DNA of 64,000 nucleotides from Phyllobates terribilis (Eukaryota), in contig NW_027362769.1 in assembly GCF_046119375.1 (NCBI RefSeq), positions 360,592,001 to 360,656,000 on the forward strand, written 5' to 3'. This document shows positions 1,378-60,234 of this stretch, in pieces (within the stretch, counting starts at the first letter, position 1; each line of letters begins with the position of its first letter). Below the pieces are notes generated by a model that saw nothing but the letters and a program-made list of their open reading frames with translations, ran no database searches and had not been told where the DNA came from. Both the position numbers and the translations under genes were made by a program.

Positions 1378-1716
1378 TCAGTAGCTATGTCCTCTTTGTG
1401 CTCCCTCCTGAGGGTAGTCCTCAGACCCGTCCGGGTCCTCTTGGCTTTCCTCGTATTGGTAGTACTGCAGCTCCTCCTCGGTTAGCTGGGTTAGTATCTC
1501 TGCGACAGTCCTCCTCCCAGGTGGCCAGGACTTTACCTCCCTTTGGGCTGCCCCGGTTAATTGGGCCACCAGGATGCTCACTTTTTGCTCCTCTGTGAGG
1601 GGGTACATCTGGAAGAGGCTATCCAGCTTTTCTCTAAAGTCATGCAGGGTATGTGACTCCCCTGAGTACTGGGGTAGCCAGGCTGCCCCCGGGATATAGG
1701 GCATGGTGAAAGGCAT
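1378..1716 (-). CDS. 112-aa ORF: Gypsy Gag N-terminal fragment fused to an acidic tail like that of the CSD protein
   Basis: MPYIPGAAWLPQYSG...QLTGAAQREV resembles Gag at 46984-47300 (LPYIPGAKWLPQYNG...QLTGAAEREV). LTEEEL..EESQEDPDGSE resembles the C-terminus of the 702-aa ORF (LTEEELRCEEEEQEDPDGSE). Confidence 0.7.
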   Translation of the reverse strand: MPFTMPYIPGAAWLPQYSGESHTLHDFREKLDSLFQMYPLTEEQKVSILVAQLTGAAQREVKSWPPGRRTVAEILTQLTEEELQYYQYEESQEDPDGSEDYPQEGAQRGHSY

Positions 1717-2220: not shown

Positions 2221-4100
<1,880 letters not shown>

Positions 4101-33624: not shown

Positions 33625-34825
33625 TGTAGCACCCTGAGGATTCGGCTGCTACAGGGGTATTGCACCTCAACCCAGAGGTGTGATATCCCACTCCCGGGTA
33701 AGGAAGGAGTGTGGAACTGAGCTCAGATAGACTGCATGCACTACATACATCCCATTCCAGAGGAGCAGGCCGACGGTACTCCCACTTAGAAATGTGCAGG
33801 TACAACCGAGCCTGTTCCTGGCTGGAGTGGGAGGGGGGTGGTACATCCCATGTAGTGTAGGGGCAGATAGGGGGAGCAGTCTGGGTAGTGATAGGAGCTC
33901 ATTGGGTGCTGGTCACCTGAGCTCACACATAGAGGGATATATAAGGAGGGCACCAACTTAGATCAGGGTCAGACGCTGAGAACAAGTCAGTTGGAGAGGA
34001 GAGAGAAGGAAACAGCAGCCCTGGAGAGAGAGAGAGTGGAGCAGAGAAAGACCCAGAGGGGGAAGACTGAAGGGACCCAAGAACCCAAATTAGAGCACCG
34101 GGTGAGGAGTCAGCAAGAGGGTACCGGAACCCAAGCTGGTGGGGGTAAAGACATTCCCCAGCCAGAGACCGGAGACCGTGGGCAGTGTCTGTCACGGTCA
34201 CCCACCACATTCACCCCGAAGGCACACCACATGAAGGGTCAGGGAACCCAGGGCCAAGGGTGTCCCAAAAGAAGGCCCGAGGGAGCTGGACCTAGGTGAA
34301 TCACTGGTGGGGACGGCTGAAGAAAGGACAGAGGGAGAGCTCAGGGCCACGCTCTGGACTTGTTTGGGGGTTGGCCGGATCCAGGACCTGGTGGACGCAG
34401 CACGGCTCGGGTGGTCACTAGCAGCTGGAGTGACCAGTACAACATCAGCAGTAAGTAAACACCCTTAACTGCACAACCCGAGTCTGTCTTCATTGCCGGC
34501 TGCATCGCACCACCACAACCCCCATCCTCTGCGCCTGTCCCCTCTGAGGCTATACCCCTCCCGTTGGGGGTTATCTCACCAAGCTGCGCACCCACCATCA
34601 GCCTCAGCGGACCCTGCTGCAGCGGCGGCCACAGTGACCGCATCCCAACGGGTGGCGTAGTCGACACAAAAGAACTTTAGTAACATCTGTAAAGCTGCCA
34701 CATAACACTTAGCTTGACGCCCTGGGCACGGGACCGGGTCACAGCCGCTCGGAGACTACAACCCCCCATCTGATCCGGTGCCGGGTATTCCCCTCAAAAA
34801 GGAATATGTCCCAGGGGGCGCGTCA
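33625..34825 (+). repeat. 5' LTR of element B
   Basis: TGTAGCACCC...GGCGCGTCA; only one difference from 37391-38591 was noticed. Confidence 0.95.
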
Positions 34826-36914
34826 ACTTTGGCGTAGTCGGCAGGATTACGTGCCCGCAACACCCGGGTACTGCGTGCCTGAAGAAAAGTGCAAGTTTAC
34901 CTCAGAAAGAAGACTCCTGCCGGTTCCGGAGGGTCCACGCCATCGGACTCCATCACCAGTCGTTTCCCGCCGATTGTCCGCCATTTCCAGCTTGTTCCCG
35001 CCATCTGCAGAGTTTCCCGCCACTGGGCGACGCTTCCCGCCAAAACCGCAGATTTCCCGCCTTGGAAGAGCAGCGGACGCCATTATGGGCGTGCCAAAGG
35101 AGGGCAGGAGGCCACCTCCCATCGTGGGCCAGGACAGAAAATGGCGCCAAAAGTGGAAACCGCCCCCACCAACAGAGACTGTGATGCTGGAGGTGTCTGT
35201 CAGCGTGAAAGAACTCCCCCTGGAGCTGACAGTCACCGAGTTGCCCCGGGACCGCCCTCTAAGTGGGAGGAGACGAAAGAGAAGAGAAAAGATGGGTGTC
35301 GCTTGGAGCAGTCTGGAGCGAGCGCACCCGGAGGCAGGAAGCCTGGAAAGGAGCAGCAGAAAAGCTCACCCGGAGATGGAAAGAGAGCAGAACAGCACCG
35401 GCCCGCTGGCCAGGAGTCTGCTAGAGACCGAGGAAGGAGGGCAGAGCAGCACCGGCCCGCTGGCCAGGAGCCTGCCGGAAGCCGAGCAGAGCAGCACCGA
35501 CCCGATGGTCAGGAGCCTGCTAGAGTCCACAACCCCGCTAGGTCTAGCGGAGATCCTAGCGCAGCTCCCCCGAGACCGGGAGTGTGCACAAACTGCCCTG
35601 GAGGGCCTCGCAAGGAGGATGGCCCGGGTACAGCGTGAGATACTGGCGGAGTGGAGCCGGGAGATGGCCCAGCAAGCAGAGACCAGTCAACGGAGCACGC
35701 TACCCTGGAAGAGGAAGCAGACCGCCTCTGAGGATGGCGCAGGAGGACCCAAGGCCGGAGACGGCGCCGAGGAGGGAGCCGAACGCATGGAGGCAGGTAA
35801 AGGGGACGCCTATACCCCAAGCCGTGACACCGCTTACCTGCCCCAGCTCCCCGTCGCAGAGTCCGAAAGTCCCCCTGCTGTGCCCGTAGCCGCCACGTCA
35901 CCGCAATGGACTAGGCCCCGACCGGAAGCCGCCGAAGCGACCCCTGTGACGTCACGCGCCTCGACCCGGAGCGTGACAAAGCAGGAAATACCACCAGCCT
36001 GGTCGCAAGGCCTAGTACCCCCGGGCGCCGCACCACCAACAGCGCCCCCTACCTCCGCGGATCCTCCGGCCTGGCCGCAAGGCCAGGTAGCCCAGGGCAC
36101 CGCCGTCCTAACGGTGCCCTTCACCTTCCAGGTGCCCCAGGCCTGGCCGCAAGGCCTGGGCAACCCGGGCGCCACCACCACCGCGCCCGCGCCTGCAATA
36201 CCTAGGGTGCCACACCTGGGGGAGGACCTCTTCGGCCAGCTCACATGGCCGGACGGGCGGCCCTTCATCTGGCCCGAAGGGTACCCTGAGCTGGAGCGGC
36301 AGCAAAGACTAGGGCCCTTGTGTGAGCCCCTAATCCCGGCTCCGAAGCCCGTGGCTCGGGTCTCGCCTCCTCTAGCAGAAGCCCAATTCGTGTGGGACCC
36401 CACGGGAGAAGATTTGATGGGGTTCACCGGAGAAACTCGGGCAGCCGCAGCTGAACGTACAGAGTGTTGCCGTCAACAGCTGGCAGAGTTTAAGAGAGAA
36501 CGGGAGGAGAGGCGGGTCAGAGAACAACAGGCCCAAATCCAGAGCGCGGAGCAGAAGAGCCGGACTAGGAGGAACCCCCGTGCAGCGCATTGTCCCCGCA
36601 CCATCGGGACAGTGATAAAGTTCAACCCGCAGCATGGGTGGGGCTTTATTCGGGACCGTAACAACCGCGGTGACGTTTTTGTGACTCGCAGAGACGTCGA
36701 GTCCCACCTGCCGGAAGGTCACAAAGGCCGTGACCTCTACGTCGGAGACGAGGTCACTTTCACCCGGCACAAGTGTGCCAAAGGACCTTACGCCCTCCAC
36801 GTACACCGCCTGACGGAGGAGGAGTTGCGGTGCGAGGAGGAGGAGCAAGAGGACCCGGACGGGTCTGAAGTAACAACCAGCTATAAGCAAAGAGCAGGAG
36901 GAAGACGCCGTTGA
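34806..36914 (+). CDS. 702-aa protein: basic/Pro-rich region, coiled coils, C-terminal cold-shock domain (about 36603-36812) and acidic tail; true start codon uncertain
   Basis: IGTVIKFNPQHGWGFIRDRNNRGDVFVT...LYVGDEVTFTRHKCAKGPYALHV follows the CSD pattern (RNP1 GxGFI, RNP2 DVFV). Confidence 0.82.
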   Translation: MSQGARQLWRSRQDYVPATPGYCVPEEKCKFTSERRLLPVPEGPRHRTPSPVVSRRLSAISSLFPPSAEFPATGRRFPPKPQISRLGRAADAIMGVPKEGRRPPPIVGQDRKWRQKWKPPPPTETVMLEVSVSVKELPLELTVTELPRDRPLSGRRRKRREKMGVAWSSLERAHPEAGSLERSSRKAHPEMEREQNSTGPLARSLLETEEGGQSSTGPLARSLPEAEQSSTDPMVRSLLESTTPLGLAEILAQLPRDRECAQTALEGLARRMARVQREILAEWSREMAQQAETSQRSTLPWKRKQTASEDGAGGPKAGDGAEEGAERMEAGKGDAYTPSRDTAYLPQLPVAESESPPAVPVAATSPQWTRPRPEAAEATPVTSRASTRSVTKQEIPPAWSQGLVPPGAAPPTAPPTSADPPAWPQGQVAQGTAVLTVPFTFQVPQAWPQGLGNPGATTTAPAPAIPRVPHLGEDLFGQLTWPDGRPFIWPEGYPELERQQRLGPLCEPLIPAPKPVARVSPPLAEAQFVWDPTGEDLMGFTGETRAAAAERTECCRQQLAEFKREREERRVREQQAQIQSAEQKSRTRRNPRAAHCPRTIGTVIKFNPQHGWGFIRDRNNRGDVFVTRRDVESHLPEGHKGRDLYVGDEVTFTRHKCAKGPYALHVHRLTEEELRCEEEEQEDPDGSEVTTSYKQRAGGRRR
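34830..34847 (+). other. PBS of element B (tRNA-Ser AGA/TGA type)
   Basis: TGGCGTAGTCGGCAGGAT, 4 nt after the LTR. Confidence 0.9.
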
Positions 36915-37381
36915 GTGCGGCAGAGCAGGTGATGTAAATAGTTACCCAATCGGGGTATAAAGGAACTGAAACTGGAACTGTTGTTGCTGCTAAAATAGTC
37001 CCCGTTGGGACCAGTGAACTGTTTTACCCGTTAACCCCTTCATCCTACAGGCTGAGGACTGTGAGCAGCCATTCCCTTTCCTCTACCTGGCCGAGGACTG
37101 AGAGCGGCCAACTTCCAACTTCCCCTGTATATAGTTGCGCGTCCTAAAGCGCCCCCTACCGGTTTTATAGGAAAACCAGTTTTTCTGAGAGACTGTCGTA
37201 CTTTTCCCGGACACACGTTGCACAGTGTCCGGAGGAGGAACCTGAAACCAGAGACGACGAGAATGTTTATATGAAAAAGTTTTATATATATATAATGTTT
37301 TATATGTTTTATATGTTCATATAAAAATTTTGTATGTTTTGGTGTTTTGTCTTACAGCCCGAGGACGTGCTGTGATTTACC

Positions 37382-37390
37382 AGGGGGGAA
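37382..37390 (+). other. PPT of element B
   Basis: AGGGGGGAA immediately before the 3' LTR. Confidence 0.88.
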
Positions 37391-38591
37391 TGTAGCACCC
37401 TGAGGATTCGGCTGCTACAGGGGTATTGCACCTCAACCCAGAGGTGTGATATTCCACTCCCGGGTAAGGAAGGAGTGTGGAACTGAGCTCAGATAGACTG
37501 CATGCACTACATACATCCCATTCCAGAGGAGCAGGCCGACGGTACTCCCACTTAGAAATGTGCAGGTACAACCGAGCCTGTTCCTGGCTGGAGTGGGAGG
37601 GGGGTGGTACATCCCATGTAGTGTAGGGGCAGATAGGGGGAGCAGTCTGGGTAGTGATAGGAGCTCATTGGGTGCTGGTCACCTGAGCTCACACATAGAG
37701 GGATATATAAGGAGGGCACCAACTTAGATCAGGGTCAGACGCTGAGAACAAGTCAGTTGGAGAGGAGAGAGAAGGAAACAGCAGCCCTGGAGAGAGAGAG
37801 AGTGGAGCAGAGAAAGACCCAGAGGGGGAAGACTGAAGGGACCCAAGAACCCAAATTAGAGCACCGGGTGAGGAGTCAGCAAGAGGGTACCGGAACCCAA
37901 GCTGGTGGGGGTAAAGACATTCCCCAGCCAGAGACCGGAGACCGTGGGCAGTGTCTGTCACGGTCACCCACCACATTCACCCCGAAGGCACACCACATGA
38001 AGGGTCAGGGAACCCAGGGCCAAGGGTGTCCCAAAAGAAGGCCCGAGGGAGCTGGACCTAGGTGAATCACTGGTGGGGACGGCTGAAGAAAGGACAGAGG
38101 GAGAGCTCAGGGCCACGCTCTGGACTTGTTTGGGGGTTGGCCGGATCCAGGACCTGGTGGACGCAGCACGGCTCGGGTGGTCACTAGCAGCTGGAGTGAC
38201 CAGTACAACATCAGCAGTAAGTAAACACCCTTAACTGCACAACCCGAGTCTGTCTTCATTGCCGGCTGCATCGCACCACCACAACCCCCATCCTCTGCGC
38301 CTGTCCCCTCTGAGGCTATACCCCTCCCGTTGGGGGTTATCTCACCAAGCTGCGCACCCACCATCAGCCTCAGCGGACCCTGCTGCAGCGGCGGCCACAG
38401 TGACCGCATCCCAACGGGTGGCGTAGTCGACACAAAAGAACTTTAGTAACATCTGTAAAGCTGCCACATAACACTTAGCTTGACGCCCTGGGCACGGGAC
38501 CGGGTCACAGCCGCTCGGAGACTACAACCCCCCATCTGATCCGGTGCCGGGTATTCCCCTCAAAAAGGAATATGTCCCAGGGGGCGCGTCA
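37391..38591 (+). repeat. 3' LTR of element B
   Basis: Near-identical to 33625-34825. Confidence 0.95.
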
Positions 38592-41500: not shown

Positions 41501-43369
41501 TACTGTATATAGAGCAGCCTGTACAGTATATAGATCAGTGTGTACAGTATATAAAGCAGCCTGTACAGTATATAGAGCAGTGTGTATAGTATATAGAGCT
41601 GCCTGTACAATTTATAGAGCAGTGTGTAGAGTATATAGAGAAATGTGTACAGTATATAGACCAGTGTGTACAGTATATAGAGCTGCCTGTACAGTATATA
41701 GAGCGGTGTGTACAGTATATAGAGCAGCGTGTACAGTATATAGAGCCGCGTGTACAGTATATAGAGCTGCCTGTACAGTATATAGAGCAGTGTGTACAGT
41801 ATATAGAGCTGCCTGTACAGTATATAGAGCAGTGTGTACAGTATATAGAGCAGTGTTTACAGTATATAGAACAGTGTGCACAGTATAAAGAGCTGCCTGT
41901 ACAGTATATAGAGTAGTGTGTACAGTATATAGAGCAGCCTGTATAGTATATAGAGCTGCCTGTACAGTATATAGAGCAATGTGTATAGTAAATAGAGCAG
42001 TGTGTACATTATATAGAGCTGCCTGTACAGTATATAGAGCAGTGTGTACAGTAAATAGAGCTGCCTGTACAGTATATAGAGCTGCCTGTACAGTATATAG
42101 AGCAGTGTGTGCAGTATATAGAGCAGCCTGTACAGTATATAGAGCAGTGTGTACAGTATATAGAGCTGCCTGTACAGTATATAGAGCAATGTGTATAGTA
42201 AATAGAGCAGTGTGTACATTATATAGAGCTGCCTGTACAGTATATAGATCAGTGTGTACAGTATATAGATCAGTGTGTACAGTAAATAGAGCAGTGTGTA
42301 CATTATATAGAGCTGCCTGTACAGTATATAGAGCAGTGTGTACAGTATATAGAGCAGTTTACACAGTATATAGAGCTGCCTGTACAGTATATAGAGCAGT
42401 GTGCACAGTATAAAGAGCTGCCTGTACAGTATATAGAGTAGTGTGTACAGTATATAGAGCAGTGTGTACAGTATATAGAGCTGCTTGTACAGTATATAGA
42501 GCAATGTGTACTGTATATAGAGCAGTATATACAGTGTATAGAGCAGTATGTACAGTATATAGAGCAGTGTGTACAGTATATAGAGCAGTGTGTACAGTTT
42601 ATAGAGCAGTTTGCACAGTATATAGAGCTGTCTGTACAGTATATAGAGTAGTGTGTACAGTATATAGAGCAGTGTGTACAGTATATAGAGCTGCCTGTAC
42701 AGTATATAGAGTAGTGTGTGCAGTATATAGAGCTGCCTGTACAGTATATAGAGCAGTGTGTACAGTATATAGAGCTGCCTGTACAGTATATAGAGCAATG
42801 TGCACAGTATAAAGAGCTGCCTGTACAGTATATAGAGTAGTGTGTACAGTATATAGAGCAGTGTGTACAGTATATAGAGCTGCCTGTACAGTATATAGAG
42901 TAGTGTGTGCAGTATATAGAGCTGCCTGTACAGTATATAGAGCAGTGTGTACAGTATATAGAGCTGCCTGTACAGTATATAGAGTAGTGTGTGCAGTATA
43001 TAGAGCAGTGTGTACAGTATATAGAGCTGCCTGTACAGTATATAGGGCAGTGTGTACAGTATATAGAGCAGTTTGCACAGTATATAGAGCAGCCTGTACA
43101 GTATATAGAGCTGCCTGTACAGTATATAGAGTAGTGTGTGCAGTATATAGAGCAGTGTGTACAGTATATAGAGCTGCCTGTACAGTATATAGAGTAGTGT
43201 GTACAGTATATAGAGCAGTGTGTACAGTATATAGAGCTGCCTGTACAGTATATAGGGCAGTGTGTACAGTATATAGAGCAGTTTGCACAGTATATAGAGC
43301 ACCCTGTACAGTATATAGAGCTGCCTGTACAGTATATAGAGCAGTTTGCACAGTATATAGAGCTGCCTG
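38592..43369 (+). repeat. 21-bp satellite array (4.8 kb)
   Basis: Variants of TGTACAGTATATAGAGC(A/T)G(TG/CC). Confidence 0.98.
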
Positions 43370-44615
43370 TGACTCGCCTCGCCCTCCCTGGCGGTGGGGT
43401 TACTCGGAGCCGGGTCAGTGTACATGTTGCGGTGATGCAGTCGTGGCCTGGACCCGTTCCGTGCCCAGGGCTGTCACATTAAAATAATGTGCTTTGGGAT
43501 GAGTGGTTGTTCGGCTATGCCACCTGTGGTTTCTGGTGAAGGCCACCAGCGCTGCAACATTCCACTGAGGCTGGTGTTAGGGGCAGCTAGGATGGGACGG
43601 CTCCCCACAGGCGGAGCAGGCCTCAGGGCAGTGTGCGAAGGAATGGTGGGTGCAATGCTGCGCAGGAATAAACAAGCGGAGGCGGTGAATGAAGTCATCC
43701 GGGTCTTTACTCACTTTAGATGAACTTTCAGCCGCAATGCTTCTCTCTGCTACTCACGGCGTACTGCGGCCACCGGGAAGGGGATCCAGCACTTCCCAGG
43801 TAGATCAGTAGCACCTGTACAGACCCCGCTGGTGTGTGTTCCTCTCCTTGGTAAGCTCTCCTACTGAAACTTCTCCTGACTGTGCGTGGAATGAACGTGG
43901 TGTAAGGCCGGGTCCCACTGGGTAAACGCAGTTTAAGAGATACAGGTGGCGACTCCGCTCCGTCCGTATCACCCTGGGATCCACTAAGCCTCCAGGCTTC
44001 TCTGACTGAGACGTGAAGTGACAAAGTCAGATATCGGGGGCAGGTTACCCCTTTTGCAGCAGGAATCCCTCTGACTAGGCCAGAGTAAAGAATACAGGTG
44101 GCGACTCCGCTCCGTCTGTATCCCCCTGGGATCCTTTTGCCTGTGGAGCCTATCTCCTCTGCTCCCCTCCTAGGCCTTCTTAGGACAGGACCCTGACCGG
44201 TTAGAGACAGTGGTTAACTCTGACTCGCTCCTCGTCTCAAGGCCAGAGTACGAGGACCGCGAATCTTCAGCCAGCTACAGACTCTTGCTGTACCCTGACA
44301 GAAGACCCTCAATCAAAGACCTCGAACTTAAGATGGCCGTGGATTATATATCAATCAATAAGTTCTTCCTTAAAGTGTGTCCTCCACCCTCACCCATTAC
44401 TAGGTTCCCCCTATCTTTAGTTCCCCCCTATCTCCTCTATCATGTGCCGGGGCAGCACCCTGGTGCATTTAGGCCCCCTACAGGACAGAAGTGATGTAGT
44501 GTTGAGTGTGAAGTGGGGTCTCGTGTGATGCTCCATCCTTACCTAGAGGAGGAGATACCACACCTCATCTGAGGTGCAGTACCCCTGTGGCGATTGAACC
44601 CTCAGGGGCGCCACA
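43370..44615 (-). repeat. 3' LTR of element C
   Basis: TGTGGCGCC...GGCGAGTCA on the minus strand, preceded by GGGGGGGAA. Confidence 0.9.
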
Positions 44616-45148
44616 TTCCCCCCCGGTGAAACTCAGCACGTCCGCGGGCTGCAATAGAGTAAAGAATTGGTACATACATTCAAAATTTTAAAAGTTTTTG
44701 TAAACATGAAACAATCTTCCCTTTATGGGAGGCTCAGTTACTTTAACGTTGCATGATATATATAGTATAAATATAGAAAACATCAAAGAGACATTATGCA
44801 TGTAGACAGTACTGTAGAAAATACGGTAGAAAAAGTCAGTTCAGCAGCATGAGGGACCTGCCCCAAACCATCAGCGTAGGCCCTGGGGTGGCTGCAGGGT
44901 ATGGAAATCCCAAGTTGGAACTTCAGTAGAGCCACACCAGACAGGTTTTGCTTCTGAGGTCTGAGGTAGAAGTGGTTTTACATAAAACCAATAGGGAGCA
45001 CCTAAATAGGTGCAAACTATTTACAAAGTTAGTCTTTCACATGCGGAGCGTCCGCAGGGACAAATGTCTCTTTCAACTAAATCCGGGTGAAAAACTTGAA
45101 AAACAAATAACAGTTCACACAATAGGGAGATCCATCTCCCGGGGCTGC

Positions 45149-45458
45149 TTAAAAGTGGGATCCCCTCCGGGGGAATGGCTCTTTCTTACCAACGGAGCCT
45201 GACCGGTCCTCTACAGCTAGGTGCGTGGGGGCGTCCTCCCTGATTACCTTGTGGACGTCCAGGGCATACCACCCACGCTCCCCGTGGTGGCGGGAGTAGT
45301 ATATCAAATTGCCCGGGTAGAGGTTCCGGCCAGGGTGGCCCTGCTCCAGCCGCGGCTCGACGTCCCGCCGGTTGACGAACACGTCCCGATTGAACTGTGA
45401 GCTGCGGATGAAGCCCCATCCTGCTACCTGGTGGAAGCACATATTAACGCCTTCCCGG
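45149..45458 (-). pseudogene. Cold-shock-domain half of the element C ORF
   Basis: EGVNMCFHQVAGWGFIRSSQFNRDVFVNRRDVEPRLEQGHPGRNLYPGNLIYYSRHHGERGWYALDVHKV aligns with the CSD of element B. Confidence 0.8.
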
Positions 45459-46591
45459 TGTGACGCCCAGCTGTGCTTGGTATCACAGATCCTAGAAGGG
45501 TGTATTGAAGGATTCCTCCACAAGAGGCCCCCATAACAATTCACACATCTCCACCTTCCACCTCAAACCACCAGAGGGAGCCCGTTAGGGATAGATAAAT
45601 AGGGAATGTGGAGCCAGGCAGCAGTTAGTCTAGACTGGACACGACAGAGAGCAAACCTGTTGAGAGAGTTCCTGCAGTATAGAAGCCTGAAAGAGGTCAG
45701 TCTGCAGTGGAGCGCAGTCCAGACTTGGTTGAAGCTCAGAGAGGTGAGCTTAGCTTAGGTGTGCCGGCGCCATAAGATCGGTGAAGCACGTCAAGCTGCC
45801 GTTAGTGTGATTAGCCTAGTGAGGGCCCGAGTAGGCCGAAGGCAAAAAGAAGAGTTAGTGCATAGGGGGCAGAGGAGCTTAACTGGCTCACCCCGAAGCA
45901 GTTACCGGACACCGGATCCGAAGCTTACCGGGATCGCCACGACCCAGTAAGATAAACCGGAATCCCTGGAGAGCTACAAGTCCCAGGATCGCTACAGTGC
46001 TGATACGTAACAATGCCAGGAGACACATAGGCCCCGTAAGTCTGGAGCGTGCACTCCAAGAGAAGGCCCTACCACAAAGTCAGTCAGCGCAGGACAGAGA
46101 CAAAGTTAGGCCTAGCTCCAGGCAGGTCAGAAACTTACTACGCAGAAGCAAGAAACAGGAGGCCCAAAACCCACTCATTGGGGAGGATTCTGACATGCAC
46201 CCTTCACCCTACAGTGCTCCGGGACGTGCCTGAATTGCCATCAGTAAAAGGTACTGAAGTGACTATCGTGTCTGTCCCCATTCTTGCTCTGACCCGGCTC
46301 GGTCTCACCTGTTCTTCATCCCCCGTCATACACTGCCCTAAGGCCTAGCTCCACCTGTGGGGAGCTATACCACCCAGCTGCCTTATCATCGGCTTCAGTG
46401 GACTGCGCAGCACTGGTGATCCTCACCAGAAGCCACAGGTGGCGTCACAAACTCTTTAATAAAACTTAACATCTATCAACGCCTTCTTTAAAGGAGAGAC
46501 CCCAGGGTACGGGCCCGGGTGCCGACCGCCGCGACATCCCCAAGGCTAAAGGCCCGGGTATCCAAGTTATCCCCATCCCCTGGGCTAGTCA
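45459..46591 (+). repeat. 5' LTR of Gypsy D
   Basis: TGTGACGCCC...GGCTAGTCA. Confidence 0.95.
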
Positions 46592-46599
46592 TCTCCTTC

Positions 46600-46618
46600 T
46601 GGCGTCACTAACAGGATT
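46600..46618 (+). other. PBS of Gypsy D (tRNA-Ser CGA-like)
   Basis: TGGCGTCACTAACAGGATT, one mismatch to my recollection of the complement of a vertebrate tRNA-Ser(CGA) 3' end (TGGCGTCACGAACAGGATT). Confidence 0.7.
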
Positions 46619-46983
46619 GCCCGTGCCCGCTGCAACGACGCCGTGTTATGCCCGTTGCCACCGGGCACTGTGCGCCTTTATTCTGAACTGTGTACGTAAA
46701 GTTGTGGTGAAGGTTGCCGCCATTGTTGGGCCACCGAGCGAGAAGAAGGGCGTAACCGCGGGAAAATTAGGGGCGTACCTGCAAAAGAGCGCGAAGCCTC
46801 GGACACGCCCCACGCTTCAACGTCAGACCAAGAGGCGCCAGGTCCTGTGAGGAACGTCGCTGAACTCTCTGACGTAGGACGCAAGCGACGCAAGGTCCTG
46901 AAGATGCCCATCACCTGCGGAGCTGCGGCCTACCGGAAGAAAGAACTAGAAGGTAGGCCAAGGTTAACTAGGGGGGCGCTAAG

Positions 46984-48038
46984 ATGTCTGACGAGCAACA
47001 GAACGCCGACATGCCGGTCAACGTCCCTGAGGTTCAACCCGCGCCCGATGATGAGCAGGCCGAAGCCGCCGCTTCACCAGCAGCGCCTGTAACACTCATT
47101 ATCCCTATGAATTTACCGTACATTCCTGGAGCAAAGTGGCTCCCCCAGTACAATGGCAAACCAGATACCCTGTCTGGATTCAAACGGAAGATATGTGGTA
47201 TCTTAGACATGTACTCTATGACCGGCAAACAAATAGCGCCGTTGTATTGGGACAACTGACCGGTGCTGCGGAACGGGAAGTGGATACGTGGTCGGCCGCA
47301 GACCAGGAGTCAGTGTCCGCAATATTCCAAAAACTACAGACTGTCTTTGAGGACCTTACTGAGGCGGACCTCCGGATGAGGTTCTACAGCTGTTCCCAAC
47401 AACCAGAGGACAATGTCCGGGACTATGCCTGGCGTCTTCAAGGGGCCCTGCGAGCTCTAAACCAGGTTAGTCCAACCAGCGTTGAGAATGAGAATAAAAT
47501 GCTGAAGGAACAGTTTGTCCGGGGACTTAGGTCTCCGGAGGAGAGCAGGACTGTGGGTTGGTGGTCCCTGGATCATCCAGATATCACCTTTGACAATCTT
47601 AAGGACATGGCTATAAAAGGACTGCAGCCCCTGGAAACAAATGCCATCCAATGTTGCCAGGGTGGGGCAACCCCAGAGCCTGTAACACCCACCTTTTCCC
47701 CAGTGGCTGCTGAAGCTAAGGTTCCAGCAACGTCCCCTAAAGAACTGGACAGTCTGCGCTCTGAGGTGTGTCAGTTGAGCAAAACCCTGACCACCGTGCT
47801 GAGTGCTCTGCAACTGTGGACGGAGCCCGAGGAAGGAGGGAAAATCCTGCTAGCCGATAGCCTTGAGGATGTCCCCTGGATGCGGAGGAGGCCAACACCG
47901 CCCTCGCCGAGGACCAGTGACCAGCGCCGTCCACCGAGGGACCCTGCCTGCTACCGCTGCCGCAAGACCGGACACATCGCCCAGAATTGTCCTTTAAACG
48001 AGAAAACCCTGGGTCCGAGGGCCGACACCCAGGAGTAA
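46984..48038 (+). pseudogene. gag: Gag with one frameshift near 47240
   Basis: PYIPGAKWLPQY..., LKEQFVRGL, and a CCHC knuckle CYRCRKTGHIAQNC. Confidence 0.9.
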
Positions 48039-51000
48039 ACTCACCAGGCCCCTCAGACTGGTACAACAGGTTCGTCGGAGGAAGACCTTTCCTGTCCATT
48101 TTGCTGGACGGGATCCCGACGAACGCCCTGCTGGACACAGGATCTCAGGTAACCATCATGCCTGACGTCCTCTACAAGAGGTTCTGGTCCATGGACGAAC
48201 TACGTCTGCCAGCTCTAAATCTTTCAGTATATGCTTCAAATGGACTCCCCCTTAACCTACTCGGGGTTAAGAATGTGACTGTGAAGGTGGGGAGAGTGGA
48301 GCTGAAGGACCAGGGACTAATTGTAGTAGAGACTAATCCTGATGACACTAATCCGTATATGGTACTTGGCACTAACATTGTTGGTAACTGTTTGGGAGAT
48401 GTTGAGTTCTTGCTCCAACAGATCGCCGACACTGCCAGGCCGAGACAGAGGCGGGCACTGCAAAGGGAGATCCGAGTCCTGATGTATCAACAGCAAGTAA
48501 GGTTAACAGACGGTGAAATCGGTGATGTGCGGGTAACAGACCCCATACCCATTGTTATCCCTCCAATGAGTGAAATGCTCATCTGGTGTAGAGCTGCCAT
48601 AGGTCTAAGAGGACAGAGCTACCAGGCGGTAATAGAACCCCTTTGCTCTGAGCATAGACCCACGCTCTTAACCGCCAGGGGAGTGGTAGATGAACGTAAT
48701 GGGAGGGTGCCCGTCCGTCTTCTCAACTTAGGGGAAGATGAGGTCAAACTGCCACGTTATGCCACTGTTGCCAAATTACATGCTGTCAATAACAACTGCA
48801 TCCATGAGGAGGAGTCCTTAACTTCACCAGACGAAGTGGAGGATAATGACCCTGCAACCCAGGTGGAGGATTGGTGTCAACAGCTCCATGTTGGGACAGA
48901 CACTACTCCTGCCCATCAAAAACAGGGTGTACACCGGGTGGTTCAAGAATACTCGCAGGTGTTCAGTAAACATCCACTAGACTTCGGGAGGGTTAAGGGG
49001 GTTCATCATCATATCCCCACAGGCAACCATTCCCCAATCAAAGAACGTTATAGGCCTATACCCCCAGCTCACTACCAGAAGGCAAAAGAAATGCTGCATG
49101 ACATAAGGAAGGCGGGAGTAATAAGGGATAGTTGTAGTCCCTGGGCAACTCCCCTAGTATTAGTGAGGAAAAAGGACGGGAGCATGAGAATGTGTGTAGA
49201 TTACCGTCAAGTAAATCGCATTACACATAAAGATGCATACCCTTTACCACGCGTAGAGGAGTCCCTAGCTGCCTTAAAGTCTGCAAATTACTTTTCCACC
49301 TTTGACCTCACTAGTGGGTACTGGCAAGTAGCTGTGGCTGAGGAGGATAGGGAAAAGACGGTCTTCACCACTCCGATGGGACTCTGCGAGTTCAACAGTA
49401 TGCCGTTCGGACTCTGCAATGCCCCCGGAAAGTTCCAGAGATTAATGGAGTGCTGCCTGGGACACCGCAACTTCGAAACTGTGTTACTTTACCTGGACGA
49501 TGTAATTGTGTACTCCAGAACATACAAGGACCACTTGAAACACCAGGCAGAGGTATTTGAGTCACTGTCCCGGTACAGGATGAAGTTGAAGCCCTCAAAG
49601 TGCCACCTGCTCAAGAGGAAGGTACAGTACCTGGGGCACATTGTCAGTCCGGAAGGGGTAGCACCAGACCCGGAGAAAGTCACAGCCATCCAGAAGTGGC
49701 CAGAGCCGAAAAACCTCAAGGAGGTGCGTCAGTTCTTGGGACTAGTATGATACTACCGGAGGTTCGTAAAGGACTACACTAAGAAGGCAGCTCCTCTGCA
49801 AGACCTCCTGGTAGGGCAGTACCCCAAAGGCAGAAATCCCCCATTCCACTGGGGTAAGGAGCAAGCCGAGTCGTTTCAGGAGATGAAGGAGATCCTGACA
49901 GGTGATGAGATCCTAGCGTACCCTGACTACAGCCAACCGTTCCTGTTGTATACAGATGCCAGCAACGAAGGGCTGGGTGCTTTATTAAGTCAGAAGCAGA
50001 ATGGCCAAGAGAAGGTGATCGCATACGCGAGCAGGAAGCTCCGCCCGACTGAAAGAAATCAAGAGAACTATAGCAGCTTCAAGTTGGAGTTCCTGGCCTT
50101 GGTCTGGGCCATCACTGAAAGGTTCAAGCACTACCTGGCCTCCAGCAAGTTCACTACCTTTACTGAAAACAACCCCTTGACCCATCTTGAAACAGCGAAG
50201 TTGGGGGCACTGGAACAACGATGGATGGCTCGGCTGTCAAACTACCAATTTACAATTAAATACCGGGTGGGCCGCAAGAACGCCAACGCCGATGCCCTGT
50301 CTAGGATGCCTCACCAGTCAGACACAGAGGAAGAAGTGGATGACCTGGAAGAGGTAGAGCTACCTGCCTTTCATCGGAGTGGGATGATCCACGAGCAATG
50401 ACCTTCCAGGAAACAGCGTGGAAAGACGTTAAACCCCCTGCCTCACCACAGCTGGAAAGAGACCCAGGACAGCGACCCGGTTGTCAGCCGCATCAAGGAG
50501 CTGATAACCCAAGAAGGTGCCTCCCTGGAGAAGGATGCGGCTCTCCAAGCAAATCAGCTGTGGAACGAGAGAAGCCGGCTGTTTATCTACCGTGAGAAGC
50601 TGTGCCGGAGGTACGTTAATCCAAAAACCCACGAGATGGTATGGCAGATAGTGGTCCCGAAGACAGACATCCAGATGGTATTAGAAGCTTACCACGATCA
50701 GGCGGGGCACTTTGACTGGAAAAAGCTAGAGACCCTGCTGAAATGTCGATTCTACTGGGTAGGAATGCGCAGCTCCATTGAGAGGTGGTGCCGGGACTGT
50801 GGACCCTGTGGCCTAAGAAGAAAAGACTTCAGCAGCCAGAAGGCACCCCTGCAACCTATCAAGACGACTCGGCCCCTGGAGATCGTGGCCCTGGACCATG
50901 TCAAGCTCTCCTCCAGCAGGTCAGGGTACTCCTATGCTCTGACCATGGTGGATCACTACTCATGTTTCCTGGTGGTCACCCCCGTCAAAGACCTGATGGC

Positions 51001-52132
51001 AGAGACAGCAGCAAAGACGTTCCAAGCGTACTTCTGCAGACCCCACAGATATCCTGAGCAGGTGCTGACGGACCAAGGCCCGGCCTTTGAGGCTGAATTG
51101 TTCAAGGAGTTCTGCCATTTGTACTGGTGTAAAAAAATCAGAACTACACCGTACCATCCACAAACTAACGGTCTCAGCGAAAAGATGAACATCATCATCG
51201 ACCTGCTAAAGACCATACCACTTGAGGAGAGAAATCAGTGGCCAGACCTACTACCTGACTTAGTGGATCAGTATAATCATATAGCAGTCAGTTCCACCAA
51301 TTGCACTCCGGCATATCTCATGCGGGCAAGGCCAGGAAAGCTGCCGATGGATCTGGAGCTTGGTGTTGATGAGCCTGAAGCTGATATGACCACTGAAAAC
51401 TGGGACAAGACCAGACAAGAGCAGTATAGAAGGGTACAAGCTTGTGTCAAGGACAGTCTTACTCGGGTGAGAGAAAAGCAGGAAAGTCAATACAACAAGA
51501 ACGCACCCGCAGAACCTTTCATACCAGGTGAAACAGTACTAAAAAGAAAAAGACGCAACCACAAACTTGATGACCAGTGGGAAAAAGACACCTACACTGT
51601 GTTACCGTCAAGGTTTGACAATAAGAAGACATGCATAATCAGTCGAGATGGAGGAAAAAGGTCCACAGCAGTGTCCAGGGACCATCTAAAGTTGTGTCCA
51701 GAATTACTGAAACCCCAAGAAAAAGTGCCTTTCACAATTCTGGAAGAACCTGAAGAAACAGTGATCCACACTGACCTAGGAGACTTCCCAGCAGATTGGC
51801 CTCAAATAGGAAGAGCAGTAATTATTCCAGTACTCCAATTCTATGAATAGCCAGAAAACCCTCCACCGCAAGTTGAACCTGTAAGCGCTGAAGAAGAGCC
51901 AGCTCAAGAAGTATCCCCGGATGAAGGATCCCCGGAAGGAGCAGAGCAAGAGGGCCCAGCCAATGGTAGACTTGCTAGTCCAAGAGAGAGGTTAAGGCAG
52001 TTTTACAACATGGTTACACGTAGAACTGGTAGAGTAACTGAGAATACAGACACTGATATCCCACCAACCACCGCACTACGCAGATCAGCACGTAGCACGC
52101 GAGGTAAACCCCCTGCTAGGTACATTGAATAA
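47987..52132 (+). pseudogene. pol: Pol in the -1 frame; a single frame with three in-frame stops (49748, 50399, 51848)
   Basis: Protease LLDTGS, reverse transcriptase YLDD, RNase H YTDAS, integrase H-H-C-C and D-D-E, C-terminal RRSARSTRGKPPARY. Confidence 0.95.
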
Positions 52133-55100
52133 AATGGTAAAAAATTTCTGGAAGTGTAGATAGTTACCCCAGTGGTATCGTATATTAAATTGTAATGTAC
52201 TGCATAATTGTTTATTTTCATGCATGCTTATCAATTTATACTTCACCTCATTAATTCTATTACTTACATAAAGGACTTCGTGGCTGAGGACTATGTGCAG
52301 CCCAAAAACTGCTATTGTATATAATTGCACTCCCTGGAGTGCCTCTTTTAGGTGACCTCAGAAGAAAAACCTGTCTGGAGTGGCTATTTTGGAGGTCCAA
52401 CTCTGGATCTTCATGCTCTGCAGCCACCCCAGGGCCTACGTAGAGGGTTTAGGATAGATCCCTCCAAATCACCAAAGTACTCTATCCTGTGAGATGGACA
52501 TCCTGTATGGGAACCTCACCATAGGAGACTTGGAGTCTGAGGACACTCTGTATTTGCTATTGTTATGTAACGTTTAAGATTCGTGCCTCCCATAAATGGG
52601 AAGATTGTTCTTATATTGCTTATGTTTCCTATTGTTATTGTTGTTTTAAAACGTACTTCCGCCCGGGAGTACTGAGTTTAACTAGGGAGGAATGTGACGC
52701 CCAGCTGTGCTTGGTATCACAGATCCTTGAAGGGTGTATTGAAGGATTCCTCCACAAGAGGCCCCCATAACCATTCACACATCTCCACCTTCCACCTCAG
52801 ACCACCAGAGGGAGCCCGTTAGGGATAGATAAATAGGGAAGGTGGAGCCAGGCAGCAGTTAGTCTAGACTGGACACGACAGAGAGCAAACCTGTTGAGAG
52901 AGTTCCTGCAGTATAGAAGCCTGAAAGAGGTCAGTCTGCAGTGGAGCGCAGTCCAGACTCGGTTGTAGCTCAGAGAGGTGAGCTTAGCTTAGGTGTGCCG
53001 GCGCCATAAGATCAGTGAAGCACGGCAAGCTGCCGTTAGTGTGAGTAGCCTAGTGAGGGCCCGAGTAGGCCGAAGGCAAAGAGGAGAGTTAGTGCATAGG
53101 GGGCAGAGGAGCTTAACTGGCTCACCCCGAAGCAGTTACCGGACACCAGGTCCGAAGCTTACCAGGATCTCCACGACCCAGTAAGATAAACCGGAATCCC
53201 TGGAGAACTACAAGTCCCAGGATCGCTAAAGTGCTGATACGTAACAAGGCCAGGAGACACATAGGCCCCGTAAGTCGGGAGCGTGCTCTACAAGAGAAGG
53301 CCCTACCACAAAGTCAGCCAGCGCAGGACAGAGACAAAGTTAGGCCTAGCTCCAGGCAGGTCAGAAACTTACTACACAGAGGCAAGAAACAGGAAACCCA
53401 AAACCCGCTCATTGGGGAGGATCCTGACATGCACCCTTCACCCTACAGTGCTCCGGGACGTGCCTGAATTACCATCAGTAAAAGGTACTGATTGAGTATC
53501 GTGTCTGTCCCCGTTCTTGCTCTGACCCGGCTCGGTCTCGCCTGTCCTGCATCCTCCGTCATACACTGCCCTGTGGCCTAGCTCCACCTGTGGGGAGCTA
53601 TACCACCCAGCTGCCTTATCATCGGCTTCAGTGGACTGCGCAGCGCTGGTGATCCTCACCAGAAGCCACAGGTGGCGTCACAAACTCTTTAATAAAACTT
53701 AACATCTATCAATGCCTTCTTTAACCCCTTAAGAACATCTGACGTACTAATACGCGTCTGTGCCCTGGGACTTAAGAGCCAGACCCGTATTAGTACGTCA
53801 TGGCGATCGCGCGCGCACACAGGCTGTGCGGGCGCGATCGCCGCCGGGTGTCAGCTGATTGTCATAGCTGACACCCGGTACTATGTGCAGGGAGCGGTCA
53901 CGCACCGCTCCCAGCACATTAACCCCCGCGATGCTGCGATCGAAGTCGATCGAAGTCGATCGCGGCATTGCGGGGGCAAGGGGAGGTGATCGCCGATACT
54001 CACCTCCTCTTCCGGCTTCCAGCGCAGTCTGCAAAGGCTTCCCGGGTGTTGCCATGACGACCCGATGTCGTCATGACAACATCCGGGTCACCAGAGAGCA
54101 GGAAGATTGCTTGGACATGCGCAGTGCATCTCCAAGCAATCTTCACACTGTGCACTTCTGACAGCCTTCATGGCATAGGGATGGTGCTCCATTCCTGTGC
54201 CATGCAGGCGATCAGAAAAAAAAAAGTGAAAGTCCCAGAGTGGGACAAAGTAATAAAGTGTATAAACTGTGTGAAAGTGGAAAAAAAAAAAAAAAAAATG
54301 TGCAAAAATATTATAAAAAAATAAAAAAAATAATACACCAAAAATAAAAATATAATGTACCCATCAATAAATATTATTATAAAAAAAATAAAAAAAAAAC
54401 AATAAAAGTACACATATTTGGTATCGCCGCGTCCGGAACAACCTGACCTATAAAACTGTCCCACTAGTTAACCCCTTCAGTGAACACGGTAAAAAAAAAA
54501 AAAAAAAAACCAAGCAAAAAACAATGCTTTATCACCATACCGCCAAACAAAAAGTGGAATAACACGCGATCAAAAAGACGCATATAAATAAAAATGATAC
54601 CGCTGAAAACGTCATCTCGTCCCGCAAAAAACAAGCCACCATATAGCTCCATCAGCCGAAAAATAAAAAAGTTATAGCTCTCAGAATAAAGCGATACTAA
54701 AAAATATTTTTTTCTATAAAATAGCTTTTATTGTGTATAAGCGCCAAAACATAGAAAAATTATACAAATGTGGTACCGCTGTAAACGTACTGACCCGAAG
54801 AGTAAAGCTGCCTCATCAATTTTACCACACGCGGAACAGAATAAAAAAAAAAAAAAAAAAACAATTCCTGAATTGTTGGTTTTTGTTTATTCTGCCTCCC
54901 AAAAATCGGAATAGAAAGCGATCAAAAAATGTCACGTGCCTGAAAATGGCACCAATAACAACGTCAAGTCATCCCGCAAAAAACGAGCCGTCACATGACT
55001 GTCTGCCAAAATTTGGAAAAATTATAGCTCTCAAAATATGGCGATGCAAAAACTAGATTTTACAAAAAATGCGTCTTTTAGTGTGTGACAGCTGTCAGTC

Positions 55101-55214
55101 ATAAAAACCCCATATGATTCTGGCATTGCTGTAATCACACCGACCCGAAGAATAAAGTCGTCTAATCACTTATACCGCACAAGGAACGGCGTCAAAAATA
55201 AACTCTTGAGTTAG

Positions 55215-55345
55215 GATTGGGCTAGGGTTAGGGCTGGGTTTGGGGCTAGGGTTGTGCTGGGGCTAGGGTTGTGCTGGGGCTAGGGTTGTGCTGGGGCTAG
55301 GGTTGTGCTGGGGCTAGGGTTGTGCTAGGGTTAGGGCTGGGGTTG
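55215..55345 (+). repeat. Telomere-like G-rich tandem repeat (17-bp unit GGGGCTAGGGTTGTGCT)
   Basis: About 5 copies flanked by GGGTTAGGG and GGGCTAGGG motifs. Confidence 0.85.
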
Positions 55346-55389
55346 GGATTTTTTTCAAAAGTAAGAAAAAAAGATGACGATATGGCGAC

Positions 55390-55689
55390 TAGTGTTGAGA
55401 GCAAGTGCTCGCTACTTGAGTTTGCATCGGGTGCTCTGGTATGCATTTAGTATCGTGGGTATTTGAGTGACATGCTCGAGTCTCTGCCCCATATGCTTCG
55501 CGGCCAAAAAACTTTACGGGGATTGCCTGCCATGCACGAGCGATCCCCGCATGTTTTTTTTTGGGTGTCTAATAACCGTGAAACATGCGGAGCAGGGACT
55601 CGAGCATGTCACTCGAGCACACGCTGTACATGGTGCATACCTGAGTACCCGATGCAAACTCAAGTAGCGAGCACTTGCGCTCAAGAATA
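55390..55689. mobile_element. hAT-type MITE, about 300 bp, nested in the piggyBac-like element
   Basis: About 50-bp inverted arms TTGAG(A/C)GCAAGTGCTCGCTACTTGAGTTTGCATCGGGT...; 8-bp flanks match only 5 of 8. Confidence 0.75.
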
Positions 55690-55769
55690 ATGAAAACTTA
55701 TTCAATATGATGACCTAATGTAAACAAATAATGTGCCGTACCTCTGGGTTCAAAATGTTCACTATACAC

Positions 55770-58130
55770 CTTAATAAAATCTTTGAGGGGTATAGTTTCC
55801 AAAATGGGGACACTTGTGGGGGAGCTCCACTGTTTAGGCACATCACGGGCTCTCCAAACGCGACATGGTGTCCGCTAACAAATTGAATGGAAAATCGGCT
55901 CAAATTGTTAGCGGACACCACATTGCGTTTGGAGAGCCCCTCTGTGCCCAAACTTTGGAGCTCCCCCACAAGTGACCCCATTTTGGAAACTAGACCCCCC
56001 AAGGCACCTTTCTAGATGCATAGTGAGCACTTGGAACCCCCAGGTGCTTCACAAATTGATTCGTAAAAATGAAAAAGTGAAAAAAAAAACACTTTTTCAT
56101 TTTTATGAATCAATTTGTGAAGCACCTGGGGTTCCAAGTGCTCACTATGAATCTAGATAGGTGCCTTGGGGGGTCTAGTTTCCAAAATGGGGTCACTTGT
56201 GGGGGAGCTCCAATGTTTGGGCACACAGGGACTCTCCAAATGCAACATGATATCCGCTAACAAATTGTCGGCTCAAATTGTTAGCGGATATCATGTTGCA
56301 TTTGGAGAGTCCCTGTGTGCCCAAACATTGGAGCTCCCCCACAAGTGACCCCATTTTGGAAACTAGACCCCCCAAGGCACCTATCTAGATGCATAGTGAG
56401 CACTTGGAACCCCTAGGTGCTTCACAAATTAATTCGTAAAAATGAAAAAGTGTTTTTTTTTTCACTTTTTCATTATTACGAATCAATTTGTGAAGCACCT
56501 GGGGGTTCCAAGTGCTCACTATGCATCTAGAAAGGTGCCTTGGGGGGTCTAGTTTCCAAAATGGGGTCACTTGTGGGGGAGCTCCAAAGTTTGGGCACAG
56601 AGGGGCTCTCCAAACGCAATGTGGCGTCCGCTAACAATTTGAGCCGATTTTCCATTCAATTTGTTAGCGGATACCATGTTGCATTTAGAGAGTCCCTGTG
56701 TGCCCAAACATTGGAGCTCCCCCACAAGTGACCCCATTTTGGAAACTAGACCCCCCAAGGCACCTATCTAGATGCATAGTGAGCACTTGGAACCCCTAGG
56801 TGCTTCACAAATTGATTCGTAAAAATGAAAAAGTGTTTTTTTTTTCACTTTTTCATTATTACGAATCAATTTGTGAAGCACCTGGGGGTTCCAAGTGCTC
56901 ACTATGCATCTAGAAAGGTGCCTTGGGGGGTCTAGTTTCCAAAATGGGGTCACTTGTGGGGGAGCTCCAAAGTTTGGGCACAGAGAAGCTCTCCAAACGC
57001 AATGTGGTGTCCGCTAACAATTTGAGCCGATTTTCCATTCAATTTGTTAGCGGATACCATGTTGCATTTAGAGAGTCCCTGTGTGCCCAAACATTGGAGC
57101 TCTCCCACAAGTGACCCCATTTTGGAAACTAGACCCCCCAAGGCACCTATCTAGATGCATAGTGAGCAGTTGGAACCCCCAGGTGCTTCACAAATTGATT
57201 CATAAAAATGAAAAAGTGTTTTTTTTTTTCACTTTTTCATTGTTACGAATCAATTTGTGAAGCACCTGGGGGTTCCAAGTGCTCACTATGCATCTAGATA
57301 GGTGCCTTGGGGGGTCTAGTTTCCAAAATGGGGTCACTTGTGGGGGAGCTCCAATGTTTGGGCACACAGCAGCTCTCCAAACGCAACATGGTGTCGCTAA
57401 CAATTTGAGCCAATTTTGCGTTAAATTTGTTAGCGGACACCATGTTGCATTTAGAGAGCCGCTGTGTGCCCAAATATTGGAGCTCCCCCACAAGTGACCC
57501 CATTTTGGAAACTAGACCACCCAAGGCACCTATCTAGATGCATAGTGAGCACTTGGAACCCTCAGGTGCTTCACAAATTGATTCATACAAATGAAAAAGT
57601 GTTTTTTTTTTCACTTTTTCATTGTTACGAATCAATTTGTGAAGCACCTGGGGGTTCCAAGTGCTCACTATGCATCTAGATAGGTGCCTTGGGGGGTCTA
57701 GTTTCCAAAATGGGGTCACTTGTGGGGGAGCTCCAATGTTTGGGCACACAGGGACTCTCTAAATGCAACATGGTGTCCTCTAACAAATTTAACGGAAAAT
57801 CGGCTCAAATTGTTAGCGACACCATATTGCGTTTGGAGATCCGCTGTGTGCCCAAACATTGGAGCTCCCCCACAAGTGACCCCATTTTGGAAACTAGACC
57901 CCCCAAGGCACCTATCTAGATGCATTGTGAGCACTTGGAACACTCAGGTGCTTCACAAATTGATTCATAAAAATGAAAAAGTGTTTTTTTTTTTCACTTT
58001 TTCATTGTTACGAATCAATTTGTGAAGCACCTGGGGGTTCCAAGTGCTCACTATGCATCTAGAAAGGTGCCTTGGGGGGTCTAGTTTCCAAAATGGGGTC
58101 ACTTGTGGGGGAGCTCCAAAGTTTGGGCAC
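55770..58130. repeat. Array of about 383-bp palindromic units (about 6 copies)
   Basis: AAAATGGGGTCACTTGTGGGGGAGCTCC-type motif at 55801, 56184, 56558, 56941, 57325, 57707 and 58090, with its reverse complement between each pair. Confidence 0.92.
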
Positions 58131-59099
58131 ACATGGGCTCTCCAAACACAACATGGCGTCCGCTAATTATTCAAGCAAATTTTACAATCAAAAAGTCAAA
58201 TAGCGCTCCTTCCCTTCCGAGCCCTGCCGTGCGCCCAAACAGTATTTTTTCCCCAAATATTGGGTATCTGCGTGCCCAGGGGAAATTGCACAACAAATTT
58301 TGGGGTCCATTTTTTCTTGTTACCCCTGTGAAAATAAAAAAAATTGGGTCTAAATTAACATTTTTGTGAAAAAAGTTAAATGTTCATTTTTTTCTTCCAC
58401 ATTCAAAAAATTCCTGTGAAGCACCTGAAGGGTTAATAAAGTTCTTGAATGTGGTTTTGAGCACCTTGAGGGGTGCAGTTTTTAGAATGGTGTCACTTTT
58501 GGGTATTTTCTGTCATAAAGACCTCTCAAAGTGACTTCAAATGTGATGTGGTCCCTAAAAAAATGGTTTTGTAAATTTTGTTGGAAAAATGAGAAATCGC
58601 TGGTCAACTTTTAACCCTTATAGCTCCCTAACAAAAAAAAATTTTGGTTCCAAAATTGTGCTGATGTAAAGTAGACATGTGGGAAATGTTATTTATTAAC
58701 TCTTTTGTGTGACATATCGCTCTGATTTCAGGGCTTAAAAATTCAAATTTTGAAAATTGCAAAATTTTCAAAATTTTCGCCAAATTTCCGTTTTTTTCAC
58801 AAATAAACGCAAGTGATATCGAAGAAATTTTTCCACAATCATGAAGTACAATATGTCACGAAAAAACAATCTCAGAATCAGGGGGATCCGTTGAAGCGTT
58901 CGAGAGTAATTACCTCATAAAGTGACAGTGGTCAGAATTGTAAAAATTGGCCCGGTCATTAACGTGCAAACCACCCGCGGGGCTTAAGGGGTTAAAGGAG
59001 AGACCCCAGGGTACGGGCCCGGGAGAAGACCGCCGCGACATCCCCAAGGCTAAAGACCCGGGTATCCAAGTCATCCCCATCCCCTGGGCTAGTCACCGG

Positions 59100-59968: not shown

Positions 59969-60210
59969 CCGTCTTGACGGACACTACTATGCGGACTGTC
60001 TCTGCTGCAGGGGGCGGTCTGCACTTTTGGCGCCACTGGGGAGCCAGGCCCACGATGGCAGGACTTTGGTTGCTGTTGTTTTTGCACATAATCGCGTCCG
60101 TTCTTCTTGGGCGGTGCCACGTTAAGTGTGTAACAACAGTTTTTTGTGAAAAAGGCGCACAGTACCCGACGGCAATGAGGGTTTTCCTATTCCATTGCTG
60201 CGGGCTCGCA

Positions 60211-60228
60211 ATCCTGCCGACTACGCCA
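60211..60228 (-). other. PBS of element C (tRNA-Ser AGA/TGA type)
   Basis: TGGCGTAGTCGGCAGGAT, identical to elements A and B. Confidence 0.9.
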
Positions 60229-60234
60229 AGTTGG

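Follow-up and report, generated by a model that had tools for sequence, protein, structure and literature searches.

Element A, an LTR retrotransposon in a histone gene cluster of the 10.6-Gb Phyllobates terribilis genome, is a mosaic in which a segment from an element encoding a cold-shock domain (CSD) is flanked on both sides by sequence of an autonomous gypsy family, here termed family F. Most probably, A arose as a recombinant of F and a CSD element devoid of pol, which would make it a non-autonomous hybrid LTR retrotransposon. The window, i.e., the whole stretch of 64,000 nucleotides that was analysed, contains four LTR elements (A, B, C, and D), of which A occupies the minus strand from position 3289 to just past the left edge.

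The 5′ LTR of A (2221-3289; 1069 bp, TGT...TCA) is of the F-family type and, where it could be aligned, is 89.7-96.5 % identical to 20 F copies. The 3′ LTR (1-868) extends 200 bp beyond the window edge, and both LTRs measure 1069 bp, have TG...CA ends, and differ from each other at three positions. The primer-binding site (PBS, 2199-2215), which we take to be that of tRNA-Ser, is common to A, B, and F. It is followed by a leader taken from F (1780-2198; 98-100 of 100 bases per segment identical to F, as compared to 68-78 identical to B where alignable) and by codons 1-98 of F gag (1484-1779), which specify the N-terminal part of a PNMA-like capsid without the zinc knuckle. Beyond junction 1 (1484-1489), a post-CSD tail of 35 aa (1378-1483) from a CSD-type element continues in frame with gag, succeeded by a piece of CSD-element 3′UTR (1189-1377) in which two short hairpins (1232-1252 and 1195-1215) have a loop in common. 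Junction 2 (1181-1188) leads back into an F-type 3′UTR that ends in the polypurine tract (PPT; 869-1180, with the PPT at 876-869) and is 88.7-95.9 % identical to 20 F copies. All of these features lie on the minus strand. The insertion is flanked by a 4-bp target duplication within a histone H2A gene, and such duplications were clear at four of ten other inspected loci of B and F type; one H2A coding sequence (window 3290-3386, end of locus L073) is disrupted by A. With its LTR pair, PBS, PPT, target duplication, an internal region of 1.35 kb without pol, and dispersed pol-less copies (mean identity 97.9 %, n=83), A is structurally a non-autonomous Ty3/gypsy LTR retrotransposon. Its gag ORF is incomplete (98 of 326 Gag residues), and an intact CSD is absent from A (no Pfam CSD match), only the post-CSD tail having been kept.

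The original prediction described a reading frame at 1378-1716 in which the first 75 or so residues match Gypsy Gag and the remainder matches the residues just after the CSD of element B. This ORF (1716-1378, minus strand, 112 aa) is present in the window copy of A, and residues 1-77 indeed correspond to the Gag of F (DNA identity up to 99 %), the last 35 residues being derived from a CSD-element tail (34 of 35 identical to a family termed K). The ORF of the A family as a whole comprises 133 aa, with the gag start located 21 codons upstream (window 1779) in each of 83 sampled copies (84 position-ordered copies fetched, one tandem duplicate dropped) and a length of exactly 133 aa in 75 of them. 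The window copy lacks the family start at 1779, hence the listed ORF begins at 1716. As had been anticipated, the junction is invariant and preserves the reading frame: a gapped pattern across junction 1 yields 2,205 matches in the genome (control: 0), and the 51-nt in-frame spacing is identical in all 100 of these matches that were listed.

The autonomous parent was reached by a search with a full-length Gag homologue, which led to a sister family E (six copies read; gag-pol without CSD; 78-80 % identical to A), and F was met beside one E copy. F elements are 7.9 kb long with 994-bp LTRs and encode gag-pol without a CSD, namely a PNMA-like Gag with a zinc knuckle (PNMA match at residues 49-182, knuckle at 304-319), reverse transcriptase (RT), RNase H, and integrase. 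A Gag protein named from Phyllobates terribilis at NCBI is encoded in the host genome at 100 % identity, and searching PDB sequences with the Gag alignment gave no more than insignificant matches to Arc (E 0.33-0.51). Element A is 96.4 % identical to F over 1566 nt up to window position 1484, and the match resumes from 1183. The gag part agrees with F gag at 310 of 317 nt up to 1484, and leader plus gag reach 99.0 % over 737 nt with the closest F copy among the 17 that aligned. The pol-end motif of F occurs 8,229 times in the genome, and 17 of 20 such loci read over 9.7 kb consist of gag-pol between paired LTRs. One F insertion (L074-L087; contigs C12, C73, C190, C807, and others) repeats at near 100 % identity with a spacing of roughly 110-150 kb, i.e., within a large amplified genomic unit. 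A set of matches made up mostly of copies of one such unit was left out of the counts.

A shared leader, U5, and 3′UTR had furthermore been taken to connect A with B. The similarity is real (72 % in leader/U5, 81 % in the 3′UTR over 1194-1312), but the leader does not link A to B, since the first 100 leader bases of A are identical to F at all 100 positions as compared to 78 for B, and B itself shares its U5/leader with F and E (71-77 %).

Positions 1483-1189 have no counterpart in F and instead match pol-less CSD-type elements of the types G, H, J, and, best of all, K. The tail is CSD-ORF-derived, and its match to B is genuine (23 of 23 nt at 1421-1443; BLOSUM score 68, reached by none of 2000 shuffles), but B (71 % nt identity) is only a more distant cousin and K is closer (up to 34 of 35 aa; 85-95 % nt identity in 20 of 20 copies). 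The tail scores 137 against J, and a G-type element is 88 % identical to A in this part. B is a relative of the tail donor and not the donor. H-type elements are represented by 118 motif matches in the genome and K-type elements by 53. LTR pairs without gag/pol are seen at the six K-type loci that were read over wider stretches, two of which retain an intact CSD, and J carries a full CSD frame of 706 aa in F-type LTRs, likewise without gag/pol. No single sampled donor is close throughout the middle piece (tail up to 95 %, UTR parts 68-92 %), so that the exact donor is either unsampled or itself mosaic.

Element B (33625-38591, plus strand) is a pol-less LTR element with a frame of 702 aa and a CSD (PF00313) at aa 601-667. 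The PPT-LTR motif of this type has 17,163 matches, corresponding to at least 17,163 B-type ends, and the LTR pairs of 20 copies are 97.9-100 % identical, as expected of young elements (B-type loci are labelled L120-L149, L260-L279, and L320-L349). Across 18 distinct B-type CSDs, dN/dS amounts to 0.065 at a dS of 0.86; the CSD is maintained under strong purifying selection in elements without pol. Close single-CSD relatives found in a representative-protein search are annotated under Phyllobates, Ranitomeya, and Anomaloglossus, with no gag/pol domain among them. In both B and J, the CSD frame is open upstream through leader and PBS into U5 (window 34806-35100; L118 from 7858 onward).

Element D (43369-45458 and 59096-61385, minus strand) belongs to another CSD family of greater age, with LTR pairs about 94-97 % identical. 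It has a U5 piece (81 %) and a 3′UTR piece (82 %) in common with the autonomous element C, a gag-pol gypsy, much like B and A with F and E, which suggests that each CSD family may borrow its ends from an autonomous partner. C is nested in D (45459-59095), its 3′ LTR apparently being split by more insertions (53725-58991), and nesting of this kind can mimic a gag-pol element with a CSD. Between protease and RT, C also shows a weak dUTPase-like Pfam match (window 48158-49747, aa 131-221; E 0.024). Further CSD families are present in the genome (L410-L469; domains with 53-76 % amino-acid identity to that of B or D), and exchange between families is again indicated by one CSD element (L460 with L476), whose 5′ LTR is of B/G type and whose 3′ LTR resembles that of F.

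At both joints of A, the parental sequences coincide over a few nucleotides. Six are found both in F gag and at the CSD end of K/G-type elements at junction 1 (1489-1484), and eight are common to the donor locus L316 and the commonest F variant at junction 2 (1188-1181). H-type elements are joined at the position of junction 2 as well, so that this joint may predate A. Other K copies are joined to the F 3′UTR at a different short match, and from these separate switch points it follows that such switching recurs. In public contigs from four runs, loose ends lie at 1484-1486 and at 1183 and continue as the parents. Contigs spanning junction 1 occur in runs labelled as three organisms; one such contig comes from a run presumed to be RNA and does not demonstrate transcription.

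We propose that RNA of F and RNA of a CSD element came together in one F particle, in which reverse transcriptase would have changed template at the short microhomologies. The product would have obtained its LTRs, leader, 98 gag codons, the last part of the 3′UTR, and the PPT from F and the middle 300 bases from the CSD element. This founder then multiplied to about 2,200 copies, with F proteins as the likely source of mobilisation in trans. Recombination with F is likely still going on in A, and the fused protein of 133 aa is probably a neutral by-product. Mobilisation by F is indirectly indicated by the LTR, leader, and 3′UTR common to A and F and by tracts of F alleles in A copies. As a counter-point to co-packaging, such alleles could also have reached A by gene conversion at the DNA level. 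Four alternatives were weighed, which need not conflict with all parts of this template-switch account.

Both joints might have formed at the DNA level, by deletion across nested or adjacent copies of F and a CSD element. Gypsy elements nested in CSD elements do exist (C in D, locus L428), and microhomology also fits end-joining repair, which is likewise expected to leave it. We nevertheless regard this origin as improbable, as two DNA events would be needed with the F parts kept in native order, and neither the recurring F-allele tracts nor the points at which K copies switched independently are explained by deletion alone.

A second alternative holds that the fusion protein is functional and selected, for example, as a truncated capsid that aids packaging of A or interferes with F. 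The junction is in frame, the gag start and, for the most part, the length are kept (83 and 75 of 83 copies, respectively), and all shared changes in the A ORF together give an omega of 0.33 (p 0.0014; 83 copies). This apparent signal of selection is, however, explained by imported F alleles. Among the shared variants of the gag part, 15 of 32 are alleles of F (reference: 18 F copies) as compared to 4 of 73 singletons (p 1.8e-6), a pattern that we read as back-recombination with F and not as selection on the A protein. Once these alleles are removed, the signal of constraint is gone (among the shared variants absent from F, 5 are synonymous and 12 non-synonymous; p 0.79), and the fusion protein evolves neutrally. 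Singleton changes are neutral from the outset (omega 1.01; 83 copies) and include five stop codons, and neither the zinc knuckle nor the greater part of the capsid domain is present in the protein. A selected function is accordingly unlikely. Weak constraint on the reading frame is possible in view of the kept start and the rarity of frameshifts (one frameshifting indel in the ORF and 81 distinct indel sites in 598 bases of the flanks, the latter count being inflated by repeats). Three or more F alleles are found in 12 of the 83 A copies, which points to continuing recombination with F.

The original prediction had favoured an ancestor with gag (possibly with pol) and the CSD gene in one element, of which A and B would be deletion or recombination products, and a larger gag+CSD master that may still exist. 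Recombination was involved, but descent from such a master and the composite ancestor itself find no support: the parents exist separately, and searches from the gag, CSD, and B-LTR sides brought up no long element with gag-pol and a CSD. Both LTRs were resolved for 49 CSD elements (B 20 of 20, D 16 of 20, J 1, G 1, K-type 6, other families 5 of 8), 48 of which contain neither gag nor pol. The wide loci left out because they have no resolvable LTR pair (4 of 20 D-type and 3 of 8 from other families) have no same-strand gag/pol directly upstream. The 49th element, locus L428, was rejected as a master, as its pol belongs to a nested, unrelated gypsy with 415-bp LTRs of its own and 38-43 % identity to F in RT, and the insertion point is continuous in sister copies. 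L428 also gave the only pol match among 90 further CSD loci inspected at ±1.5 kb (two of which are the same place). From the other side, the F 3′UTR and LTR follow immediately after pol at all 30 sampled F pol ends, a CSD is found in none of 20 wide F loci (9.7 kb) and none of six E loci, and all 30 sampled B-type LTR ends are preceded by a CSD-type ORF, which includes the domain in 27 cases, and pol was seen at none of them. An un-nested LTR pair enclosing both pol and a CSD ORF is consequently absent from the 49 CSD elements, the 30 F pol ends, and the six E copies. This sample is small against tens of thousands of copies, and 0 of 30 limits the share of F copies that could be a master to roughly 10 %.

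Origin of both A and B by deletion from a single gag-pol + CSD master, be it rare or extinct, therefore seems very unlikely. Some features would accommodate it: J and H hold CSD sequence in F-type LTRs with an F 3′UTR and join about 45 nt after the F pol stop, which leaves room for an extra gene, and the sample covers only a fraction of a very numerous set of repeats. Yet, apart from the counts given above, the CSD frame begins in the leader, at the expected start of gag, and the single-CSD relatives from poison frogs are without a gag or pol domain. Least credible is that the tail is an old Gag remnant, with the CSD frame a gag derivative and A only fusion-like, for although BLAST against full Gags covered 81-90 % of the ORF and 10 of 24 residues of the tail match the Gag of element C (score reached by 0 of 5000 query and 5 of 5000 target shuffles, in one of seven Gags tested), the match to F's own Gag is not significant (367 of 5000), nor is that to five other Gags, the gag profile does not score the A tail (257 of 2000), and profile bits are negative for nine correctly framed tails and for those whole CSD frames that scored.

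Under the recombinant origin favoured here, what A keeps of value from its CSD parent is likely RNA sequence, in the form of predicted hairpins, and not the CSD. The EDPDGS stretch of the tail is conserved at the nucleotide level, with three of three fourfold sites invariant as compared to 6 of 28 in the CSD (18 B-type sequences), and coincides with a predicted 6-bp hairpin (1423-1438, minus strand) that is a candidate cis signal. Three stem variants exist among the 18 sequences, pairing being kept by G-U, and no compensatory double change was seen among them. Further downstream, hairpins with a shared loop are present twice in A, B, and G and three times in J; one occurs in the 3′UTR of C and none in F, E, or D. 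The CSD is partly or wholly lost while the downstream stretch is kept in A, G, H, most K, and three B-type copies, which makes a cis-acting RNA role of this stretch plausible. The whole middle segment of A folds no better than shuffled sequences (z 0.07), and support for the hairpins thus comes from local conservation only.

The fusion alone is an ordinary recombinant. Of more interest is the swarm of pol-less CSD elements, and A constitutes a genetic record of exchange between this swarm and a specific gypsy family. Through this exchange, F emerges as a likely helper of the pol-less CSD elements. A broader interpretation, which we put forward tentatively and with more doubt than confidence, is that poison-frog gypsy elements form a system of helpers, satellites, and cheaters. 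Satellites (over 17,000 B-type copies) would encode a CSD protein that favours packaging of their own RNA via the 3′ hairpins, F-like elements would serve as helpers, and A would be a cheater of 2,200 copies that retained the hairpins and the cis signals of F and dropped the CSD. If true, a captured and conserved RNA-binding domain in elements that are unable to copy themselves, shed time and again by derivatives in which the RNA motifs downstream are kept, would be an unusual satellite strategy. The CSD satellite system may also account in part for the great amount of gypsy sequence in poison-frog genomes, reported as about 1 Gb for Oophaga pumilio (PMC6278860). The main text of that report contains no occurrence of 'cold shock', 'CSD', or 'non-autonomous'. 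The literature searched showed no CSD-bearing LTR elements, and repeat databases and supplements of papers may hold these families.

Among known systems, elements of the TR-GAG type are gag-only LTR elements, with a gag-derived coding sequence and no pol. In this they resemble A; A differs in having only 98 of 326 Gag residues, no zinc knuckle, and a foreign tail. The name TR-GAG is used in PMC13570524. The Xenopus elements 1a11 and xretpos, compared here by description only, are likewise frog LTR elements with an ORF and without pol, as are A and B, and 1a11 was called Gag-like (PMC4585706). They are set apart, again by description only, by their lower copy number (tens to hundreds), and the portions of PMC4585706 on these elements describe no cold-shock domain. 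Ty3/gypsy elements with additional ORFs beside gag-pol, as outlined in PMC7264820, PMC5408684, and PMC9289625, have similarly captured an extra domain, whereas here the CSD frame is found only in separate, pol-less elements. The closest parallels are the chimeric non-autonomous LTR elements of plants that arose by template switching, for which PMC5668417 (Onsen) and PMC13570524 (sugar beet) provide a precedent of pairwise recombination in LTR families. Like A, these chimeras kept LTRs, PBS, PPT, and target duplication while coding capacity was lost and modules were reshuffled between families by pairwise recombination. In contrast to the plant chimeras as portrayed there, one parent of A is itself pol-less and carries a CSD under strong purifying selection, and the host is a vertebrate.
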